Origin: a virus | Lineage: Duplodnaviria > Caudoviricetes | Strand: one strand, 5' to 3' | Length of the DNA stretch: 36,519 bases | IMG/VR virus record: IMGVR_UViG_3300031965_000090 | Span: 1 to 36,519 of that record | Shown: in pieces, positions 3,655-36,519 of the stretch | Position numbering within the stretch: position 1 is the stretch's first letter | Layout of the letters: every line of letters starts with the position of its first letter | Made by a program: the position numbers and the translations under genes | Notes under the pieces: model-generated | Database searches by the model: none | The model's input: the letters and a program-made list of their open reading frames with translations, nothing else | What the model was told of the DNA's origin: nothing

Positions 3655-3681
3655 CTAATTAATAACTGAGGAATTATCAAA

Positions 3682-4107
3682 GTGAACAGACAACAAGCAA
3701 AAATTTATGCAACACTAACACCAGAGCAAGTTAAAGTTTTATACCCTGATTTTAATATTGACTGTTTTGAAATTATGCAAAAATGGGCTAATGGATATGA
3801 TGTTACCGTTTTTGGAATAGCGCACAGAGAGTTAAATTTTAATTCCATCCCATGCGATTATAAATTCAAACCTAAAACACACATAGTTAACGGCATTGAA
3901 TGCCCTGCACCGTTTGATGTTATGCCTCAGATAAGGGAGTGTTTTTATATCATTGAATATAATGCGGATGTTGTGGATTATACTGTTAATGAAAATAATT
4001 TCTGGCAGTTAAGATTATTTGAAATAGGAAACTGTTTTAAATCAGAAGCGGACGCAAGATTAAACGCTCTTGCTCACTGGCCGAAACTTAAAGGTATATT
4101 AAAATGA
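3682..4107 (+). CDS. hypothetical protein
   Basis: GTG start after AACTGAGGAATTATCAAA. Confidence 0.75.
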   Translation: MNRQQAKIYATLTPEQVKVLYPDFNIDCFEIMQKWANGYDVTVFGIAHRELNFNSIPCDYKFKPKTHIVNGIECPAPFDVMPQIRECFYIIEYNADVVDYTVNENNFWQLRLFEIGNCFKSEADARLNALAHWPKLKGILK

Positions 4108-18944: not shown

Positions 18945-20108
18945 TTATCCCAGCAATAAAGCGGTGTGCTCTGGTTTAATGTTTTTAACACCCCATGCAA
19001 TTGAGATCTCGTATCGCACCATCCTGTTACCTGGATAGATCGCGATCTCAAAGGTTAATCCGGTGCGCGGGTCAGTGATGCTAGTCACGTCAAGCGCCAA
19101 GTCGCCTTCAACCGGACGTTCAGGCATACGAGTAGCCAGCACGATAGCTGATCGATTAAACAGCATATTTCTTGCCGCTGCTGCTACGACGGTGATCGCT
19201 GTGGCGCTGGCTGCTAATGCTACTCTAAGGCCTGGCTCTGCTAGTGTAATAGTCCCGCCGTTTGACACGTCAGCGTCACCAGATGCAATAACATATTTAT
19301 TGGTATCGCCTGCGATTGTGATAATATCACCAGCCAAAATCGTACCAGTTCCCGCCGAGGCCAATGTGATCACTGTATCGCCCACGGCATAGCCTGCGTT
19401 ATCAGTTGTCGCACTCGCACCAGTACCAGCCGTGTTTGTTTTAACCTGCGCTGATTGACGAACATCTAAACCGTCAATAGATCGAATGATCCCTTGTCGC
19501 ATTAAACCATTATCAAACTCAACCGCTGAACTAGACTGTTTACCCGCAAATTCAGCGGCCGCAGTCGTATCCAAAACAAGTTGATTGTCAGATACTGGCG
19601 CGCCATTATCTTTTAATATTTTATGCGCGTAGGTGGCTTGGGTAAAATTACCAGCAGTTTGGAATGGTGTAGTACCTGCGGTGCCAAATGCTCTGCTGGT
19701 GGTGATGTGTAAATCGGCTAAATCGGATTCAACCTCATTTACCAGTGCGCGCATTGCCTGTAACATTTGATTAGCTCGGATCGGAAAATACCCGGGGCCT
19801 TTACCATCACTATTTAAACTACCTTGCTCTAAACCGTTCCATGAGAAAGGGCGTCCGCGTGATTTTGTGATTTTGATTTTAGTATTGCCAATAGTTTGGT
19901 CAGCCGCTGCCGGAATGCTCATAGCCGGAGTAATATCAAAACCCGCATTTGCCGCAGGCGCGATAGGGACAACTACTTCTTGATCTTTGTGTGCTCGATT
20001 AACTCGGGCGTCTATTGTGACAGCCGGAATAAATCCAACTAGTTCTCGTGATACGATATCCAACGCGGCGTAAGCGTCTGGGATTAAATCGGTTAATGTA
20101 TTAGCCAT
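18945..20108 (-). CDS. major capsid protein, P22 gp5-like
   Basis: MANTLTDLIPD.Y.ALD.VSRELVGFIPAV...DPRTGLTFE...AWGVK.IKPEH; strong terminator downstream. Confidence 0.9.
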   Translation of the reverse strand: MANTLTDLIPDAYAALDIVSRELVGFIPAVTIDARVNRAHKDQEVVVPIAPAANAGFDITPAMSIPAAADQTIGNTKIKITKSRGRPFSWNGLEQGSLNSDGKGPGYFPIRANQMLQAMRALVNEVESDLADLHITTSRAFGTAGTTPFQTAGNFTQATYAHKILKDNGAPVSDNQLVLDTTAAAEFAGKQSSSAVEFDNGLMRQGIIRSIDGLDVRQSAQVKTNTAGTGASATTDNAGYAVGDTVITLASAGTGTILAGDIITIAGDTNKYVIASGDADVSNGGTITLAEPGLRVALAASATAITVVAAAARNMLFNRSAIVLATRMPERPVEGDLALDVTSITDPRTGLTFEIAIYPGNRMVRYEISIAWGVKNIKPEHTALLLG

Positions 20109-20121
20109 TTTTTAGTGCCTC

Positions 20122-20826
20122 TTAGTTTAGTCTGCCGCCGCTCAAAATGAACGCGGCTTGTGATTGGATCGGTAAAGCGTCATAAGCTTCCCGTTTCATT
20201 GTTTTAGCTTTAGCACTGCCGCCGCCCGAACCGTTAACACTGCCGCCGCCGTTGGTTACAACATCAGCTTTTAATAGTGGGCTGTAATTTTCATCAGCTA
20301 ATAATTCCGCTTTGAACCCAACTAAATCTAATGACGAGGCACTACCATCATCATTTAAAAAAGTTATCTTTCCGGTATCGATATCAACATCGACACGATT
20401 CGATAAAATTTGTTTAAATATTTTCTTACCCTTTTCAGTCGCCATTTCTGATAATTCAGAAACCACTAAACCGATTTTATCTTTTTTATAAGCGCTGGTT
20501 AATTTGTCAATTCTAGCCTCGTATTGCGCTTTGGTTTCGTTATTTCTTCGTTCGACATCTTCGAGTATCTCTTTCGTTTTACCCTCAGCCATCAACTTGT
20601 CCAGCGCCTTTTTTTCAGCTTCTGCCTGGCGCTCAGCTTGCCCTTTTTCATAATCTGATAACTTGCCTGTCGTTTCTTTCAGCTTGTGATCTAAATCATT
20701 TAATGAGCTTTTTAATTTTGCTGCTTTAAACTCGGATGAGTGCTTGAAAACTTCACCGTCTTGTTGATAATCGTTTTTAATAAATTCTGGCAATTCATCA
20801 AATTGCGCTTGGGTTAATTCACTCAT
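20122..20826 (-). CDS. capsid scaffolding protein
   Basis: Coiled-coil with a Gly-rich linker; lies between portal and capsid. Confidence 0.75.
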   Translation of the reverse strand: MSELTQAQFDELPEFIKNDYQQDGEVFKHSSEFKAAKLKSSLNDLDHKLKETTGKLSDYEKGQAERQAEAEKKALDKLMAEGKTKEILEDVERRNNETKAQYEARIDKLTSAYKKDKIGLVVSELSEMATEKGKKIFKQILSNRVDVDIDTGKITFLNDDGSASSLDLVGFKAELLADENYSPLLKADVVTNGGGSVNGSGGGSAKAKTMKREAYDALPIQSQAAFILSGGRLN

Positions 20827-22348: not shown

Positions 22349-23473
22349 TTATAATCCTGCGCGCTTAAATGCTCTGGAGTTTAATAATCTTAATTCGTCC
22401 AGTGTTAATGTTCTTCCGGTCATGTCAGTGAATTTATCAATACTCATTTTGCCGTCAAAGAATAGTTTGGCTCGCGTTTTGCCCAGCGTATCTTCAACAA
22501 ACCAATCAGGTTGCTGTTTTAACCATGTTCCGTAACCGGTGCGCGCATTAATTTGACCAGCCTTAAATGTGGTCGCATCTTTACGACCTCGATATTTTAT
22601 TGTTCTATCTGTCCGTGATTTTCTCTTTTCAAAACTTTCTTTTGCTGCTTCGCCCTCTTGACCGCCGACCGATGATCGCGTCCCACCGATATTTTTTTGA
22701 CCCTTTGTCAGATAGATCCAAACGCTTCTCTCATTCCAGTGGAGCGGCAACTTAGGATAGTTATCATCGGTTAATAGCCATGTTTTACCGTGGTTTCCAG
22801 CGCAAACTAATGTGGTTCTGTTATCAAAAGTCGCATTAAAAAAACGCCTCTCTAAAATATCCAAGTTATCCTGCGCCATGGCTTCGCGTGCGTTTACTGT
22901 GTAATGACTCATCCCAGTTCTCGCCAAAGCTTCTAGTTCACGCCTTAAAAATCCGCTACTGGCTTGCTTGAGTCTTGCTATAGTCTGTCCGACTGTTTCT
23001 TGATTCACATAACCTGATTTGATCTCATTATCAAACGCTCGCCCGATTGAGTTTTGCTGATTGAGCACAAATTCAACCCAAGTGCCTGAGGTTGTTTTTT
23101 TTCCGCTGACTAATGACAATAAAGATTGGTCAATAAACTGTTTGATTTTTTTGTTTGCCGGAATGGTTAAAGTAGCTTGATTTAAAGAGCCAATCAAATT
23201 GGCATGAAAGTCGGCTTCATAATATGCGATTGATTCTAATTCTTTTCCAAACTCGTCAAACATTACTCTTGTTATTCGTCTTGTGCTTTTAGATACTTTT
23301 TTCAGTGCGTCCTGTAATTTTTTAGGCGTGTTTAAGCTTTCCATATCAAGCAAAATTAATCTGGCTGCTTTGTAAGCTTCTTCTAAACTGGGATAAATTT
23401 TTGAGTTGAGAAGTCCGCTAGCTAATCTCGCTAGATAAATTTCATGACGTGATGAATCATCAACCAAACTCAT
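22349..23473 (-). CDS. minor head morphogenesis protein (Mu gpF/SPP1 gp7-like)
   Basis: ALART, ATFDNRTTLVC, PLHWNERS and WLKQQP...LGKTRA. Confidence 0.85.
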   Translation of the reverse strand: MSLVDDSSRHEIYLARLASGLLNSKIYPSLEEAYKAARLILLDMESLNTPKKLQDALKKVSKSTRRITRVMFDEFGKELESIAYYEADFHANLIGSLNQATLTIPANKKIKQFIDQSLLSLVSGKKTTSGTWVEFVLNQQNSIGRAFDNEIKSGYVNQETVGQTIARLKQASSGFLRRELEALARTGMSHYTVNAREAMAQDNLDILERRFFNATFDNRTTLVCAGNHGKTWLLTDDNYPKLPLHWNERSVWIYLTKGQKNIGGTRSSVGGQEGEAAKESFEKRKSRTDRTIKYRGRKDATTFKAGQINARTGYGTWLKQQPDWFVEDTLGKTRAKLFFDGKMSIDKFTDMTGRTLTLDELRLLNSRAFKRAGL

Positions 23474-28929: not shown

Positions 28930-29115
28930 TTACTCTCCCTGGATCTGATTGATATATTTACCTGTGCTTTTTAGCGCCGCCTTTTCAGTTTTAAAAAACC
29001 GTGGCTTGTAATTGCCGACGACTATTAGCTCAACTCCGCCAAACGAATTATTTTCATCTCTGACTACTAACGCGTAAAAAGTGCCGTCTTTTTGCTGTTC
29101 AATTAATGCTCTCAT
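28930..29115 (-). CDS. hypothetical protein
   Basis: AAACTGAGG RBS. Confidence 0.7.
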   Translation of the reverse strand: MRALIEQQKDGTFYALVVRDENNSFGGVELIVVGNYKPRFFKTEKAALKSTGKYINQIQGE

Positions 29116-29512: not shown

Positions 29513-29560
29513 GTGTATAAGCAATTGATGAGCAGTTGCTAAAACTGAGGCAAATTAAAA

Positions 29561-30015: not shown

Positions 30016-30219
30016 ATGCAAATATCACAATACTACTCACTAGACGAGTATTTAAAAGAGCATCATCGCTATAACAATGCATCTTTTGGTCGCGAAATCG
30101 GGAGAACCAGGCAAGCTGTCGGCAAAATGCTTCAAAGCAAAGATCGCTGGGCTGTTGTAGTTACTAGCGATAAAAAAGATCTGGTTGAAATTAAAAAAAC
30201 CATTGAAAATATTCATTAA
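30016..30219 (+). CDS. small Cro-like HTH protein (putative)
   Basis: NNASFGREIGRTRQAVGKML; GAGG SD. Confidence 0.6.
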   Translation: MQISQYYSLDEYLKEHHRYNNASFGREIGRTRQAVGKMLQSKDRWAVVVTSDKKDLVEIKKTIENIH

Positions 30220-30242
30220 TTTTTAAAAACTGAGGTGATAAA

Positions 30243-30593
30243 TTGAAACCATCTGAAATATTAAAAATAATTAAATCTGGGGATATCGACGAGTCTCGCG
30301 GCATTTGCGATAATTTCGTTAGGATAATGAGTGGAAAAACTGGCTGTAAAATAGGCGATGGGTTATCGCCGAACGCACTTAACAATCTTATAAATTCTAA
30401 CAAGATCATTCTTGATGACTGGCACTTATATTCTGGATTCGCGCCCTACCCAGTACCATCATTTGTCGAAAGTCACAGCGATTTGCGAGCGTTTGTATCA
30501 TTTAAAAAATGGTCTAAGCACACAAAATACGGTAGGGCAAGGTGGGAGTTTCTGGATTGGCTTATCGAACAGTTTGAAAATAAAGGATTGTGA
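30243..30593 (+). CDS. hypothetical protein
   Basis: TTG start after AAACTGAGGTG. Confidence 0.7.
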   Translation: MKPSEILKIIKSGDIDESRGICDNFVRIMSGKTGCKIGDGLSPNALNNLINSNKIILDDWHLYSGFAPYPVPSFVESHSDLRAFVSFKKWSKHTKYGRARWEFLDWLIEQFENKGL

Positions 30594-32108: not shown

Positions 32109-32380
32109 TTTATCTTGCTGCTTGGCTTTTGGCGAAAAATACCACCCGGCCTCAGGTTTTTATTAAATCTTGGCGCATCGATCCATTTTTCTTCATAAAC
32201 ATAATAAAATTGAAAATCAACTTCGTCTAAAATAATCGCGGCCAATAATTCTTTGGCAGTTTCGCGATCTAGGTCTTTAAGCGGCTTATCAATCTTTGTT
32301 AAATCTTTCATTTGAAACCTCAATTTATCCTCAGTTGATTTTTGATGTTTTGGAAATGGTAATAATTCAAGACCGTACAT
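32105..32380 (-). CDS. hypothetical protein (alternative start at 32311)
   Basis: SD before 32380; an internal ACTGAGG..GAGG RBS before ATG 32311. Confidence 0.6.
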   Translation of the reverse strand: MYGLELLPFPKHQKSTEDKLRFQMKDLTKIDKPLKDLDRETAKELLAAIILDEVDFQFYYVYEEKWIDAPRFNKNLRPGGIFRQKPSSKIK

Positions 32381-32397
32381 ATTAACCTACCTTATTT

Positions 32398-32796
32398 TTA
32401 AAATGGAATAATTTCAAACTCATCATAATCAATCGCATTTCTATAATTTTCAATTTTTCCATAGGTGCCGACATTGAAAATTATATAATCGCCATAACCT
32501 TGATCGCCGTGACACAAGCCAGATGGGACATAATTATTAAAACGAGATGCAATTTTTTTATTGTTTTCATCGAGCAAAAAATAACTTCCAGCATCGCAAA
32601 CCTTAAAATGAAAACTTGCTTTAGTGTCTTTTGGCCAATCCATAACCTCACCAGTCTCAATATTAATAACTGGAACCCAAACATCGTTAAACTTAAACGG
32701 TACATGATCGCCGGATTCACTTCTTTCTCCGTTTATTTCTGCGTCATCCCAGTATCTAACTTGCGCTTCAACCATTAAATATTTTGCGCTTTTCAT
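32398..32796 (-). CDS. phage hypothetical protein
   Basis: GAGGTG SD; VRYWDDAEING, FKVCDAG and GYGDYI. Confidence 0.75.
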   Translation of the reverse strand: MKSAKYLMVEAQVRYWDDAEINGERSESGDHVPFKFNDVWVPVINIETGEVMDWPKDTKASFHFKVCDAGSYFLLDENNKKIASRFNNYVPSGLCHGDQGYGDYIIFNVGTYGKIENYRNAIDYDEFEIIPF

Positions 32797-32805
32797 TTTA
32801 TCACC

Positions 32806-33006
32806 TCATTTTTTTAATTTAACATATTCTGCATTTTTATGATGTTCATTCTTGATCCAATGTGTAAAAACTTTTTCAGCCGAATAAAATTTATTAAACG
32901 GTGAAAAAATCAAATAATTATAAAAATACTCCCCAGTTTTTTCATTGTGCGCCAAAAATTTAATGTATGGTGGCGGTCGTTCGTCGCTCAACTTAACAAG
33001 CTGCAT
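32806..33006 (-). CDS. hypothetical protein
   Basis: Overlaps the helicase end; likely ATG at 33006. Confidence 0.55.
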   Translation of the reverse strand: MQLVKLSDERPPPYIKFLAHNEKTGEYFYNYLIFSPFNKFYSAEKVFTHWIKNEHHKNAEYVKLKK

Positions 33007-34468
33007 TTTTCTTTTCCAAAGATTTGGCATAAGCAATCTGTTTGTATTTGATAAACCCCAGCGTTGCCTCTGATGGTTCGCAACTCATATCATCACGCAA
33101 ACCGCGCGGCCAAACGCCAGTTATATCTCTATAAGTGTGGCTCATCCAACCGTCTGAAATATGTCTGCCAATAAATTGCTGAGCGATTTTATACCCGACC
33201 AATTCAGACCAGAGCTGTTGTTTATCGACCTTTGTTTTCTTACCCTTCATCTGGACTAGTTCACCTGCCAAAACTTCCACGTCTTTAGTTTTACGAGGTT
33301 TAAAACCGCACTTGCTGCACTCATGCTCACCTGCTGGTTTCAAATAATCGCATGACTGGCATTTTTTAGGTAATTTTTCGTATTTTTCTTTTGCTTTGGC
33401 GGGTGAGACTTCTTTTTTCTCGTCAGTGTCTAGTTCGTCATAATCAATCTCGTCAGGATACCCTAGCTCTATCATCGTGCCAGAATGGTCTAAAATAATT
33501 AAATATTCTTTACCGTCAGCAGTTCTTAATCCTCTCCCAAGCATTTGGACAAGTTTTATTTCTGATTTAGTTCTGCAAGCTAATATAATACATCTAACGT
33601 CTAAATCTAACCCTGCGATTAGAGTCCCAACATTAATTAGTATCGATATTTTTAATTCAGAAAACAATTTAAAATATTGCTCTCTCTCGTCAATCGGTGT
33701 TTTTGATGTGATCACATGATTAGATATTCCTAATTTGTCAAACTCTGAGCCTATAAAATTTGCGTGAGCCACGTTTTGAGCAAAACAAATTGTTGGTAAA
33801 TTTTCAGCTTTTTTCATCCAAGTTTCTGTAATCGATCCAACTATTTTTGGCGTGCTCATTCGCTCTGCTGTTTCTGATTCGTGATAATCACCTTTGACTA
33901 TTCTCACCCCGTCCATATCAGGTGAAACTGGCGCATAAGCGATATATTCAGATAGGAAATTCTGATCGATTAATTCGGTCATTGAAATGGGTTTTAGTAA
34001 AGTATCGTAGTGTTTGCCTATTCCCTTTGACCAGGGTGTCGCTGTAAACCCAATAACCGGAGTATTGCTTTTATCAATGTGCGACAAAAAAGTTTTGAAA
34101 AGAAGATGACATTCATCAACTAAAATCAAATCGAAGTCTTGAAATTTCCGGCGGATTAAAGTTTGTACGCTGGCAATTTGCAATCGACGGCTTGAATCTG
34201 TCCACGGATGATCAGCTTGGATTATCCCTGGCTTTGGCAATCCCTGAGCCATAAAGCTTTTTGCTGTTTGGTTAATCAATGCCGTGTAGGGTGCAACAAA
34301 CAATACTCGCTTACCCTTATCTAACGCGCCGCTGACTATGTGCGCCATGGTAACAGTTTTGCCGCTTCCAGTTGCGCATTGATAAAGTGGTCTTGTATAT
34401 TTGTTTCTGAATGCCTGCTTGAGCATTTCTAAACCAGAATTTTGATATGATCTTAATTTATATAACAT
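32993..34468 (-). CDS. SF2 DExH helicase with C-terminal Zn ribbon
   Basis: LRSYQ, TGSGKT, DECH, TAT, QMLGRGLR and CxxC..CxxC. Confidence 0.95.
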   Translation of the reverse strand: MLYKLRSYQNSGLEMLKQAFRNKYTRPLYQCATGSGKTVTMAHIVSGALDKGKRVLFVAPYTALINQTAKSFMAQGLPKPGIIQADHPWTDSSRRLQIASVQTLIRRKFQDFDLILVDECHLLFKTFLSHIDKSNTPVIGFTATPWSKGIGKHYDTLLKPISMTELIDQNFLSEYIAYAPVSPDMDGVRIVKGDYHESETAERMSTPKIVGSITETWMKKAENLPTICFAQNVAHANFIGSEFDKLGISNHVITSKTPIDEREQYFKLFSELKISILINVGTLIAGLDLDVRCIILACRTKSEIKLVQMLGRGLRTADGKEYLIILDHSGTMIELGYPDEIDYDELDTDEKKEVSPAKAKEKYEKLPKKCQSCDYLKPAGEHECSKCGFKPRKTKDVEVLAGELVQMKGKKTKVDKQQLWSELVGYKIAQQFIGRHISDGWMSHTYRDITGVWPRGLRDDMSCEPSEATLGFIKYKQIAYAKSLEKKNAAC

Positions 34469-34569
34469 TTGAAACCTCGTCTTATCTCAGTTTTTAAAAA
34501 TTTATGCCAGCGCACGGAGACTGAGGAACCTAATATTGTGGATCAATACAATATCGCGCTGGTTTAACA

Positions 34570-34598
34570 ATATTAAATCATTCTAAAATGTTTAACAA
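34570..34598 (-). promoter_or_regulatory. putative promoter for the helicase leader
   Basis: TTGTTA-17 nt-TAATAT, starting just before the CCAGCGC stem. Confidence 0.55.
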
Positions 34599-34607
34599 GT
34601 GTTTTAT

Positions 34608-34844
34608 TTAGAATGGTAATAAATTGTTGTCCACTGCTTTGTGTTTATCTACAAATTTTCTTAACCAAATATTTGCACGTTGCCTGCTTCTATGCGGATC
34701 TATTTCTAAAAGTTCTCGATAAATTTCGCCGTATCGAGTGAGCGTTTTTTTCTGTAACGATATCGGCAATTTATCAATCTCTATTTTTATAAAATTCCAG
34801 TCACCATATCGGTGTCCGTGGATCCCGCCGTCATAATAATTCAA
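34608..34844 (-). CDS. hypothetical protein (replication region)
   Basis: 78 aa with R.RANIWLR; ATGA overlap. Confidence 0.7.
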   Translation of the reverse strand: MNYYDGGIHGHRYGDWNFIKIEIDKLPISLQKKTLTRYGEIYRELLEIDPHRSRQRANIWLRKFVDKHKAVDNNLLPF

Positions 34845-35140
34845 AATGATTTCTTGGCGTTGTATTCGGCTATTTTTTTCTCTCTAATAATAGATTTTAA
34901 TTCAGGAGACATATTTTCTTTTGAGCGTTTACTAAAAAAGTTATCAGGAAGAGCGTCTTTTATAACTTCTTCGGTTTTATTTTGCTTAGCTCCGTGTTTT
35001 TTTGCTGCGATCTTCACAGCTAGTTTGAGCGGTGAGTTTTTATCAACAATTAACCACATTGCTAGTTTTACAGAGTTTCTAGTCTCTTCATCTAATTCCC
35101 AAATATTAACTTTTTGTAAATAATCATTAGAATTTTTCAT
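34841..35140 (-). CDS. hypothetical basic protein
   Basis: ACTGAGG RBS; directly downstream of the structured region. Confidence 0.7.
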   Translation of the reverse strand: MKNSNDYLQKVNIWELDEETRNSVKLAMWLIVDKNSPLKLAVKIAAKKHGAKQNKTEEVIKDALPDNFFSKRSKENMSPELKSIIREKKIAEYNAKKSF

Positions 35141-36038: not shown

Positions 36039-36069
36039 TTATTTCCCCGATTTTTTATGTGTCAAGCTT

Positions 36070-36162
36070 TAATTTAGCATTATTAAAGTATAATGTAAAG
36101 TTTTAGTATATTTAAAATAAACATTAATTAAAGTTGCATTTGCTGAATTTTTGGTTTATCTT
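36070..36162. promoter_or_regulatory. divergent early promoter pair
   Basis: Minus strand TTTACA-17-TAAATT (about 36099-36071); plus strand TTGCAT-17-TATCTT (36134-36162). Confidence 0.65.
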
Positions 36163-36210
36163 TGATCATGAAAAGCAATTAAATAAATTAATTAACTGAG
36201 GATTAAATAA

Positions 36211-36519
36211 GTGAAATTAAAAATACAAATTAAAAATCGTTTTACTGGGAGTGTTATGTTTGAATTTGAATCAGAAAATAACTCGATGAAAAAAACATTG
36301 GAGGCCGCGATAAAAAACGGCTCTGATTTAAGCAACTCTAATTTACGCAACTCTGATTTACGCAACTCTAATTTACGCAACTCTAATTTAAGCAACTCTG
36401 ATTTAAGCAACTCTGATTTAAGCAGCTCTAATTTACGCGGCTCTGATTTACGCAACTCTAATTTAAGCAACTCTAATTTAAGCAACTCTAATTTAAGCAG
36501 CTCTAATTTACGCGGCTCT
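36211..36519 (+). CDS. pentapeptide-repeat protein, N-terminal part (runs off the end, continues at base 2)
   Basis: GTG after AACTGAGG; MKLKIQIKNRFTGSVMFE...EAAIKNG followed by S(D/N)L(S/R)(N/S/G) x13. Confidence 0.9.
   Translation, partial: MKLKIQIKNRFTGSVMFEFESENNSMKKTLEAAIKNGSDLSNSNLRNSDLRNSNLRNSNLSNSDLSNSDLSSSNLRGSDLRNSNLSNSNLSNSNLSSSNLRGS
36322..36519 (+). repeat. 15-nt coding tandem repeat, about 13 copies
   Basis: TCT(G/A)ATTTA(A/C)GC(A/G)(A/G)C units. Confidence 0.95.

Follow-up and report, generated by a model that had tools for sequence, protein, structure and literature searches.

What does the non-coding DNA in front of the helicase gene of this phage specify: a leader RNA that controls only the gene behind it, or a small RNA that reaches a whole class of genes? 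The window, by which we mean the whole stretch of DNA analyzed (36,519 nt), is a 36.5-kb phage record with an estimated completeness of 92% (CheckV). It carries erf, exonuclease, NinB/NinG, and superfamily II helicase genes, together with a head-tail block at approximately 4551-28800. Its protein relatives belong to phages of Gammaproteobacteria. The helicase (491 aa, DEAD/ResIII type; phrog_16, PF04851, PF00270, PF00271) is encoded on the minus strand at 34468-32993, downstream of a gene for a 78-aa protein (34844-34608, minus strand) whose homologues precede the element in relatives, which fixes the synteny. The 139-nt gap between these two genes is the site of a predicted leader RNA. A sequence-only reading of the gap had proposed at least a cis switch for the helicase and possibly a trans-acting RNA of about 60 nt that shuts down genes with an ACTGAGG ribosome-binding site (RBS).

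Folding predicts a structured RNA of 56 nt on the minus strand (34562-34507). Its closing stem, P1, joins 34562-34555 to 34514-34507; CCAGCGC (34562-34556) and GCGCTGG (34513-34507) form 7 bp to which an inner G-U is added, while the outer A.C of the 8-mers first read as the stem is a mismatch. The inner hairpin, P2 (34554-34533), is present as described, with ATATTGT (34554-34548) facing ACAATAT (34539-34533) around the loop ATTGATCC, which holds the 4-nt palindrome GATC, a length that chance could give. Also present is the segment GGTTCCTCAGTCTCC (34530-34516, minus strand), which is mostly unpaired in the ensemble. It falls at the position of a third stem, P3, that is nearly lost (34531-34516, minus strand): P1 and P2 are predicted firmly, whereas P3 has only 2 to 3 bp and is mostly open. 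The seed within it, TTCCTCAGT (34528-34520), is mostly open in ensemble folding both in the free RNA and within the full leader. P1 (7 to 8 bp) is GC-rich inside an AT-rich spacer, and P2 is perfect. The fold of a 62-nt interval has a predicted energy of -17.5 kcal/mol (z = -3.03; 1 of 200 shuffles was equally good), an interval picked after the fold was seen, with longer intervals giving z values of -2.15, -1.64, and -0.51. One DNA run, possibly from the source sample, contained no sequence variants over the element (34507-34562).

The promoter claimed for this RNA fared worse. The weak sigma70-like candidate on the minus strand, TTGTTA (34598-34593) and TAATAT (34575-34570) separated by 17 nt, scores a sub-threshold 8/12 and is absent from the 14 sites listed by the promoter scan. 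It ends 7 nt before the stem, and relatives have a -10-like box there, as judged by eye. A terminator scan of the window found no intrinsic terminator after the stem of the element. Overlapping the promoter candidate, at 34566-34628, are an AT-rich inverted repeat (22-nt arms, 77%) and a direct repeat of TTGTTAAAC; judging by their sequence, these repeats are a possible operator.

Downstream of the stem, the two cis pairing sites that had been noted are both present. Box a1, ACTGAG (34491-34486, minus strand), is preceded by an A/U tract and forms 6 bp with the seed; box a2, AGACGAGG (34482-34475, minus strand), includes the helicase Shine-Dalgarno (SD) sequence GAGG and forms 4+4 bp with one bulge. 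The predicted pairing energy in the window is stronger for a2 (-10.6) than for a1 (-7.3). The seed is, in addition, the exact complement of ACTGAGGAA at 987, 2359, and 3665, the RBSs of erf and of the genes at 2376 and 3682, as the sequence-only reading had stated.

To see how such elements are distributed, we read the upstream DNA at 31 close helicase loci, some of which are duplicate records. Most have no gap or element in this slot. Six of the 31 (L027, L030, L034, L035, L036, and L042) carry an element directly before the helicase, in a gap of 135 to 142 nt holding a 45- to 52-nt three-way junction, and these six show four different loop/box sets. At three loci (L001, identical to L015; L040; and L022, partial), an inserted HNH_3 gene precedes the helicase, and the element lies in front of that gene. 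The syntenic elements lie behind homologues of the window's 78-aa gene, with L022 too short to show this. Pattern and blastn searches gave members in other phages; the gene behind the element is mostly an annotated or apparent HNH gene and in one case a winged-HTH gene.

We tabulated 25 members, in which the last loop pairs with a1 approximately 7 to 14 nt past the stem and with a2 at the SD; two rows lack a clear a1, namely L268 and L030, the latter mis-windowed on an upstream ATG. Examples are the loop TTCGTTAC with a1 GTAACGA and a2 TAACGAGG, the loop AACTCAGA with TCTGAG and ACTGAGG, and the loop AACTCTGAA with TTCAGAG and TCAGAGG. The longest match of a loop to its own boxes averages 5.6 (a1) and 5.2 (a2), versus 3.2 and 3.6 for non-cognate pairs, and the cognate means were reached by none of 20,000 permutations over 17 loop classes; the loops were delimited by hand, which favors this result somewhat. 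The match is longer to a1 than to a2 in 15 of the 25 members, equal in 4, and shorter in 6 (one of them the mis-windowed L030), and by energy a1 is the stronger partner in only 14 of 25. The stems co-vary as well, with 97% of cells paired and double changes at 8 of 12 pairs, versus 30 to 44% in slid controls, as computed on an alignment fitted to the structure. This same-slot family, with its co-varying loop, a1, and a2, supports the proposed cis switch for the helicase, and on these sequence comparisons the loop tracks the cis boxes only.

Three records carry two leaders each: L001 (5270-5316 and 9025-9070), BA3 (22820-22885 and 36065-36130), and phage 1.210.O (10137-10203 and 43425-43493). 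The loops differ between both copies in all three, as expected if cross-talk is avoided, which is weak evidence given 17 loop classes. In Vibrio phage 41E34.2 (MW824394.1; L246, approximately 1090-1660), an unannotated 190-aa ORF behind an int-alpA-type leader is 40% identical to the HNH protein of the window. The window itself contains a second structured leader, at 27575-27449 on the minus strand before the HNH gene 27448-26855. It lies upstream of a GGCGG RBS and has a long AT-rich stem with an inner region that contains TCTGAGG and TTTGCGCCT; GTTAGAG and CTCTAAC could pair as an alternative, and the search of this leader against Rfam gave no convincing match.

The family to which these leaders point is int-alpA (Rfam RF02996, typed Gene; sRNA; cut-off 35.8 bits), a motif that reportedly comes from a survey of 224 motifs. 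RF02996 matches 12 of the 15 member records, three of them above the cut-off; the leaders of syntenic relatives, like related leaders in phages, are scored as RF02996 or close to it, and the element of Shewanella phage ZP9 is annotated as int-alpA. Cultured phages with a canonical member include BA3, ZP9, vB_ValP_FGH, and 207E29.1. A gathering-threshold scan of 15 loci gave no match, yet the second L001 copy scored 37.6 bits in a later RF02996 search. Members of the int-alpA type are found mostly in front of HNH-type genes.

By position and layout, the window copy resembles these members. It occupies the same intergenic slot, between the 78-aa gene homologue and the helicase; it lies just 5' of a phage gene and is followed by a U/A tract and an RBS; and its last loop has complements in two boxes downstream, of which the second lies at the SD. 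Its core measures 50 nt with the ATG 41 nt beyond, compared to 45 to 52 nt and 33 to 46 nt in other members (the L030 row left out). By model score it does not: RF02996 had no match at E <= 10 in the whole window genome, including 34440-34620, and an Rfam search of the window element matched no family. We also built two covariance models, R1 and R2, from 12 and 23 relatives with the window copy excluded (alignment A5 and R2 include L205:3008-3093, which is probably spurious). R1 misses the window copy, and R2 gives only a 2.9-bit partial overlap (E 8). Direct sequence likeness to eight syntenic members is marginal (best uncorrected p 0.008 to 0.05; 16 of 24 comparisons not significant), the common GCUUAGC/GAAA features are missing from P2, and P3 is almost absent. 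Because all three models miss it and the direct likeness is marginal, we do not file the window copy in the int-alpA family. Its predicted fold is likely a diverged int-alpA-type leader RNA; it probably descends from an int-alpA leader and works like one, with formal family membership unproven.

Direct searches for close copies gave no further members. The exact 16-mer of the segment has eight matches in viral contigs; each lies in a long open frame and lacks this fold, and we treated them as chance. The loop+a1+a2 pattern has 17 matches, none scored by R2, of which 11 are an unrelated family. Those 11 (L282-L286, L288, L289, L291, L294, L296, and L298) are a conserved non-coding inverted-repeat array, rich in CCTCAGT/TGAGG, in viral contigs of 54 to 57% GC; from its sequence it is possibly an origin with iterons. 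A blastn search of the window element against cultured phages returned short chance pieces only, and one of a relative's element against plasmids returned no match.

Taken together, these data lead us to favor, with somewhat better than even confidence, a leader RNA that controls its own helicase operon. The helicase (34468-32993) would be the gene directly controlled, with the exposed loop pairing with one of two boxes before the start codon and thereby setting the level of helicase translation. On the nascent transcript, the loop would first meet a1, which lies 15 nt past the stem and would act as a decoy; while the loop is held there, a2 and the GAGG SD would be free, permitting an early burst. 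Later pairing with a2, via refolding or via accumulated free RNA copies acting on their own mRNA, would block the ribosome. The burst would thus limit itself, a behavior that suits a nuclease and that in this phage would serve the helicase operon. The predicted fold, the complementarity, the synteny, and the family co-variation are observed, whereas the decoy role of a1, the switch role of a2, and the origin of the element are inferences; an HNH endonuclease cassette that inserted before the helicase may have brought the element in as its leader, which was then kept after loss of the nuclease. Counting against this explanation are the misses by RF02996, R1, and R2, the marginal likeness, the sub-threshold promoter, and the greater strength of a2 than a1 in the window. 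The co-variation of loop, a1, and a2 in cultured Vibrio, Shewanella, and Thalassomonas phages offers a concrete, cheaply testable mechanism for int-alpA, and the syntenic elements exemplify nuclease leaders inherited by a core replication gene.

The main rival to self-control of the helicase operon comes from the rest of the genome. ACTGAGG occurs 12 times in the window against 1.64 expected, a count reached in none of 100 shuffles. Ten copies stand before start codons; of the other two, the one at 511 falls within an ORF and the last is the complement of the loop itself. On the plus strand, these ten RBSs include those of erf (987-993, start 1004; predicted to pair with the segment over 11 bp), the 304-aa gene at 2376 (2359-2365), and the genes starting at 3682 (3665-3671), 29561 (29544-29550), and 30243 (30229-30235), as well as a repeat-protein gene starting at 36211 (36195-36201). 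On the minus strand they belong to the genes starting at 29115 (29132-29126) and 29352 (29367-29361), a 99-aa gene starting at 35140 (35152-35146), and the gene at ATG 32311, which is preceded by a tandem ACTGAGG + TGAGG (32335-32309), an a1-a2-like cassette without a leader RNA of its own.

A domesticated trans regulator would make sense of this class: a stable RNA of about 56 nt would be released and block both its own operon and the ten early ACTGAGG RBSs, serving as an RNA timer for early shut-off. ACTGAGG marks 10 of the 28 early genes and none of the 29 late ones (p = 3e-4, with the early/late split drawn post hoc at the structural block), or 10 of 14 early and 0 of 6 late genes among those with a GAGG SD (p = 0.011). 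The window has 10 RBS-like ACTGAGG sites versus 0 to 2 in 18 other phage records, 15 of which have a member, and across 130 loci of at least 15 kb, which overlap and are not independent, the maximum for any NNNGAGG 7-mer is 4. When 66 start regions are ranked by pairing with the 9-nt loop, the ten RBSs take the first ten places, and three form 11-bp duplexes. Loss of the P3 stem leaves the open seed longer than in relatives, and the cassette of gene 32311 offers paired boxes without an RNA beside them.

Against trans control, the result expected of it in relatives, namely a loop that co-varies with the genome-wide RBS motif, was not obtained, and the proposal of an RNA for the ACTGAGG class fails on this point. 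Four records share the CTCAG loop core, and ACTGAGG stands at 1, 1, 1, and 2 RBS-like sites in them; GC-containing complements of other loops stand at 1 to 4 such sites in their records. Short AT-rich or SD-like loop complements are commoner, mostly as a low share of copies (TGATAA 7/69, GAGGT 7/32 in BA3). Nor does the loop itself need distant targets: in the window its bases are all covered by a family-like 5' GTTC and the complements of a1 and a2, and the C after CCTCAGT mismatches the A located 5' of ACTGAGG in nine of the ten distal sites. A second contact is not apparent, since matches to the P2 loop are not enriched at the ten targets (mean 4.9 nt versus 4.7 nt in 44 controls), and several coding-sequence or antisense sites equal or surpass seven of the RBSs in pairing with the loop. 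The missing terminator and a copied block that has drifted to AATGAGG likewise speak against trans control. We rejected one strong-looking site, at 24859-24844 on the minus strand, 15 nt inside terL; its 13-bp bulged complement to the loop (-21 kcal/mol) is at chance level, reached in 4 of 60 random genomes.

The RBS blocks resemble each other over 21 to 40 nt in repeat analysis and are copied well beyond the pairing bases: 982-1021 and 2354-2393 are 93% alike over 40 nt, and 30222-30248 and 32791-32817 are 89% alike over 27 nt, the latter being the AATGAGG copy. The 21-nt context of a1 is 95% like the leader at 30214-30234 (gene 30243), and that of a2 is 86% like 32309-32329 in the leader of gene 32311. 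From these likenesses, the match of ten RBSs to the loop most likely arises from copying among RBS blocks and the a1/a2 cassette. Such copying would explain the match without selection for pairing and without trans control, and the copied blocks would be ready targets if free RNA accumulates. A pattern search for the RBS block had no matches, and viral contigs gave no relative of the 2376 protein, so that no close genome was found for comparing the spread of the ACTGAGG class with that of the RNA. The nearest early-region relatives, L025 and L039, both under 6 kb, have neither the element nor ACTGAGG RBSs. At title and abstract-start level, the literature on ACTGAGG phage RBSs and on phage small RNAs acting on early-gene SDs yielded nothing relevant.

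On this balance, we regard the trans regulator as unlikely. We hold to be equally improbable its fuller form, in which the leader of a selfish endonuclease cassette would have turned master timer after loss of the nuclease and opening of the seed loop; it would be the RNA equivalent of T4 RegB, with a regulon enlarged through copies of the target box. Repression of the ten ACTGAGG genes by a free RNA would mean that a phage small RNA governs a whole temporal class via a shared RBS, and that a regulon was born from the target box of a mobile element.

The scaffold-position gene at 20826 and the major capsid gene at 20108, both on the minus strand, have the near variants ACTAGAGG and ACTAAGAGG, which would break seed pairing. 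Between 29352 and 29561 lie divergent strong sigma70-like promoters, identified by eye (TTGACA-17-TACAAT and TTGACA-17-TACTAT), and the leaders of this pair are 26-nt inverted copies, 77% alike, ending in ACTGAGG. An ORF of 15-nt tandem repeats (pentapeptide-like) leaves the right end of the window on the plus strand (36211-36519); it probably continues at the left end (2-265), because both parts match phrog_31567, and the record may be a circle broken within the repeat. An altered host anti-SD was considered as a cause of the ACTGAGG class, and the absence of the class from late genes argues against this.

It is also possible, in our judgment quite doubtfully so, that the element has no present role and is either what remains of a nuclease cassette since lost or an unrelated hairpin. 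ACTGAGG would then be a strong AACU+GAGG ribosome site spread among early genes by recombination, or the target of a phage protein such as a RegB-like nuclease or a translational repressor. The failure of three covariance models agrees with this, as do the lack of any element in this slot in most helicase relatives, which marks it as dispensable in the family, the extension of RBS-block copying well past the seed, and the near variants at the capsid and scaffold genes. Passages of PMC2839356 and PMC3014915 moreover document repeated early promoter/SD cassettes and protein-driven, SD-targeted early shut-off, respectively. Decay or coincidence does not, however, readily account for a GC-rich P1 in an AT-rich spacer, a perfect P2, and two cis boxes that still match the loop, or for its retention ahead of the helicase in six relatives, whose loop/box sets are of four kinds. 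A plus-strand reading, in which the loop complement is an eleventh ACTGAGG RBS for an antisense peptide of 16 aa (TTG 34536, at a 9-nt spacing that resembles other sites) or 9 aa (GTG 34538), has existing ORFs in its favor and is very improbable given that the nearest plus-strand promoter-like site listed upstream is at 33064, that the GC-rich, structured context is unlike the A-rich RBS class, and that relatives' loops here are unrelated in sequence and track minus-strand boxes.

Self-control of the helicase operon can be set beside several known systems, of which int-alpA is the nearest. RF02996 describes a three-way junction of about 50 nt with a U/A tract and then an RBS behind it, a size and order that the window copy shares. 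The window copy differs in having no RF02996 match, a P2 that is a long AU-rich hairpin, and a P3 that is nearly gone; in having a core helicase, not a nuclease, behind it; and in a loop complement that is found again at ten other RBSs. In the two papers that use the term int-alpA, the passages on it describe no function. The main text of PMC5737381, the 224-motif survey, does not name it, and its supplement may already record the loop/RBS pairing.

The logic of the proposed leader is close to that of the C4 RNA of phages P1/P7 (RF01695), the P4 CI RNA, and IsrK of Gifsy-1. As portrayed in passages of PMC5320573 and PMC4825925, these are small multi-stem RNAs, each made from the 5' portion of its own target transcript, cut from it or overlapping it, with variable loops that give target specificity and occlude the RBS; Salmonella Gifsy-1 IsrK controls its own mRNA by both cis and trans action. 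The passages of PMC2864571 that bear on this, supplement included, name C4 alone. The Rfam C4 model has no match in the window or five relatives, and the C4-type pairing of two loops with two boxes is not seen, the P2 loop having no enriched partner near the ten RBSs. A further mark of the C4/CI class is processing by RNase P to a stable RNA that acts in trans. Compared with C4, CI, and IsrK, the window element is smaller, only one of its loops pairs with targets, and both boxes lie downstream.

Other comparisons concern phage RBSs. T-even homing endonuclease genes with RNA-blocked RBSs, the subject of titles cited in PMC3014915, have hairpins that are simple local stems, unlike the window leader. 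For T4 RegB, a shared SD motif marks early mRNAs for class-wide silencing, according to parts of PMC3014915; RegB is a protein that cleaves GGAG, whereas the candidate effector in the window is an antisense loop. Finally, the PeSL cassettes of T4-type phages, presented in sections of PMC2839356 as repeated promoter/SD blocks before early ORFans and as recombination points, are an analogue for the copied ACTGAGG blocks, with the difference that PeSLs span about 100 bp with a promoter and a stem-loop, while the blocks of the window cover 20 to 40 nt around the RBS.
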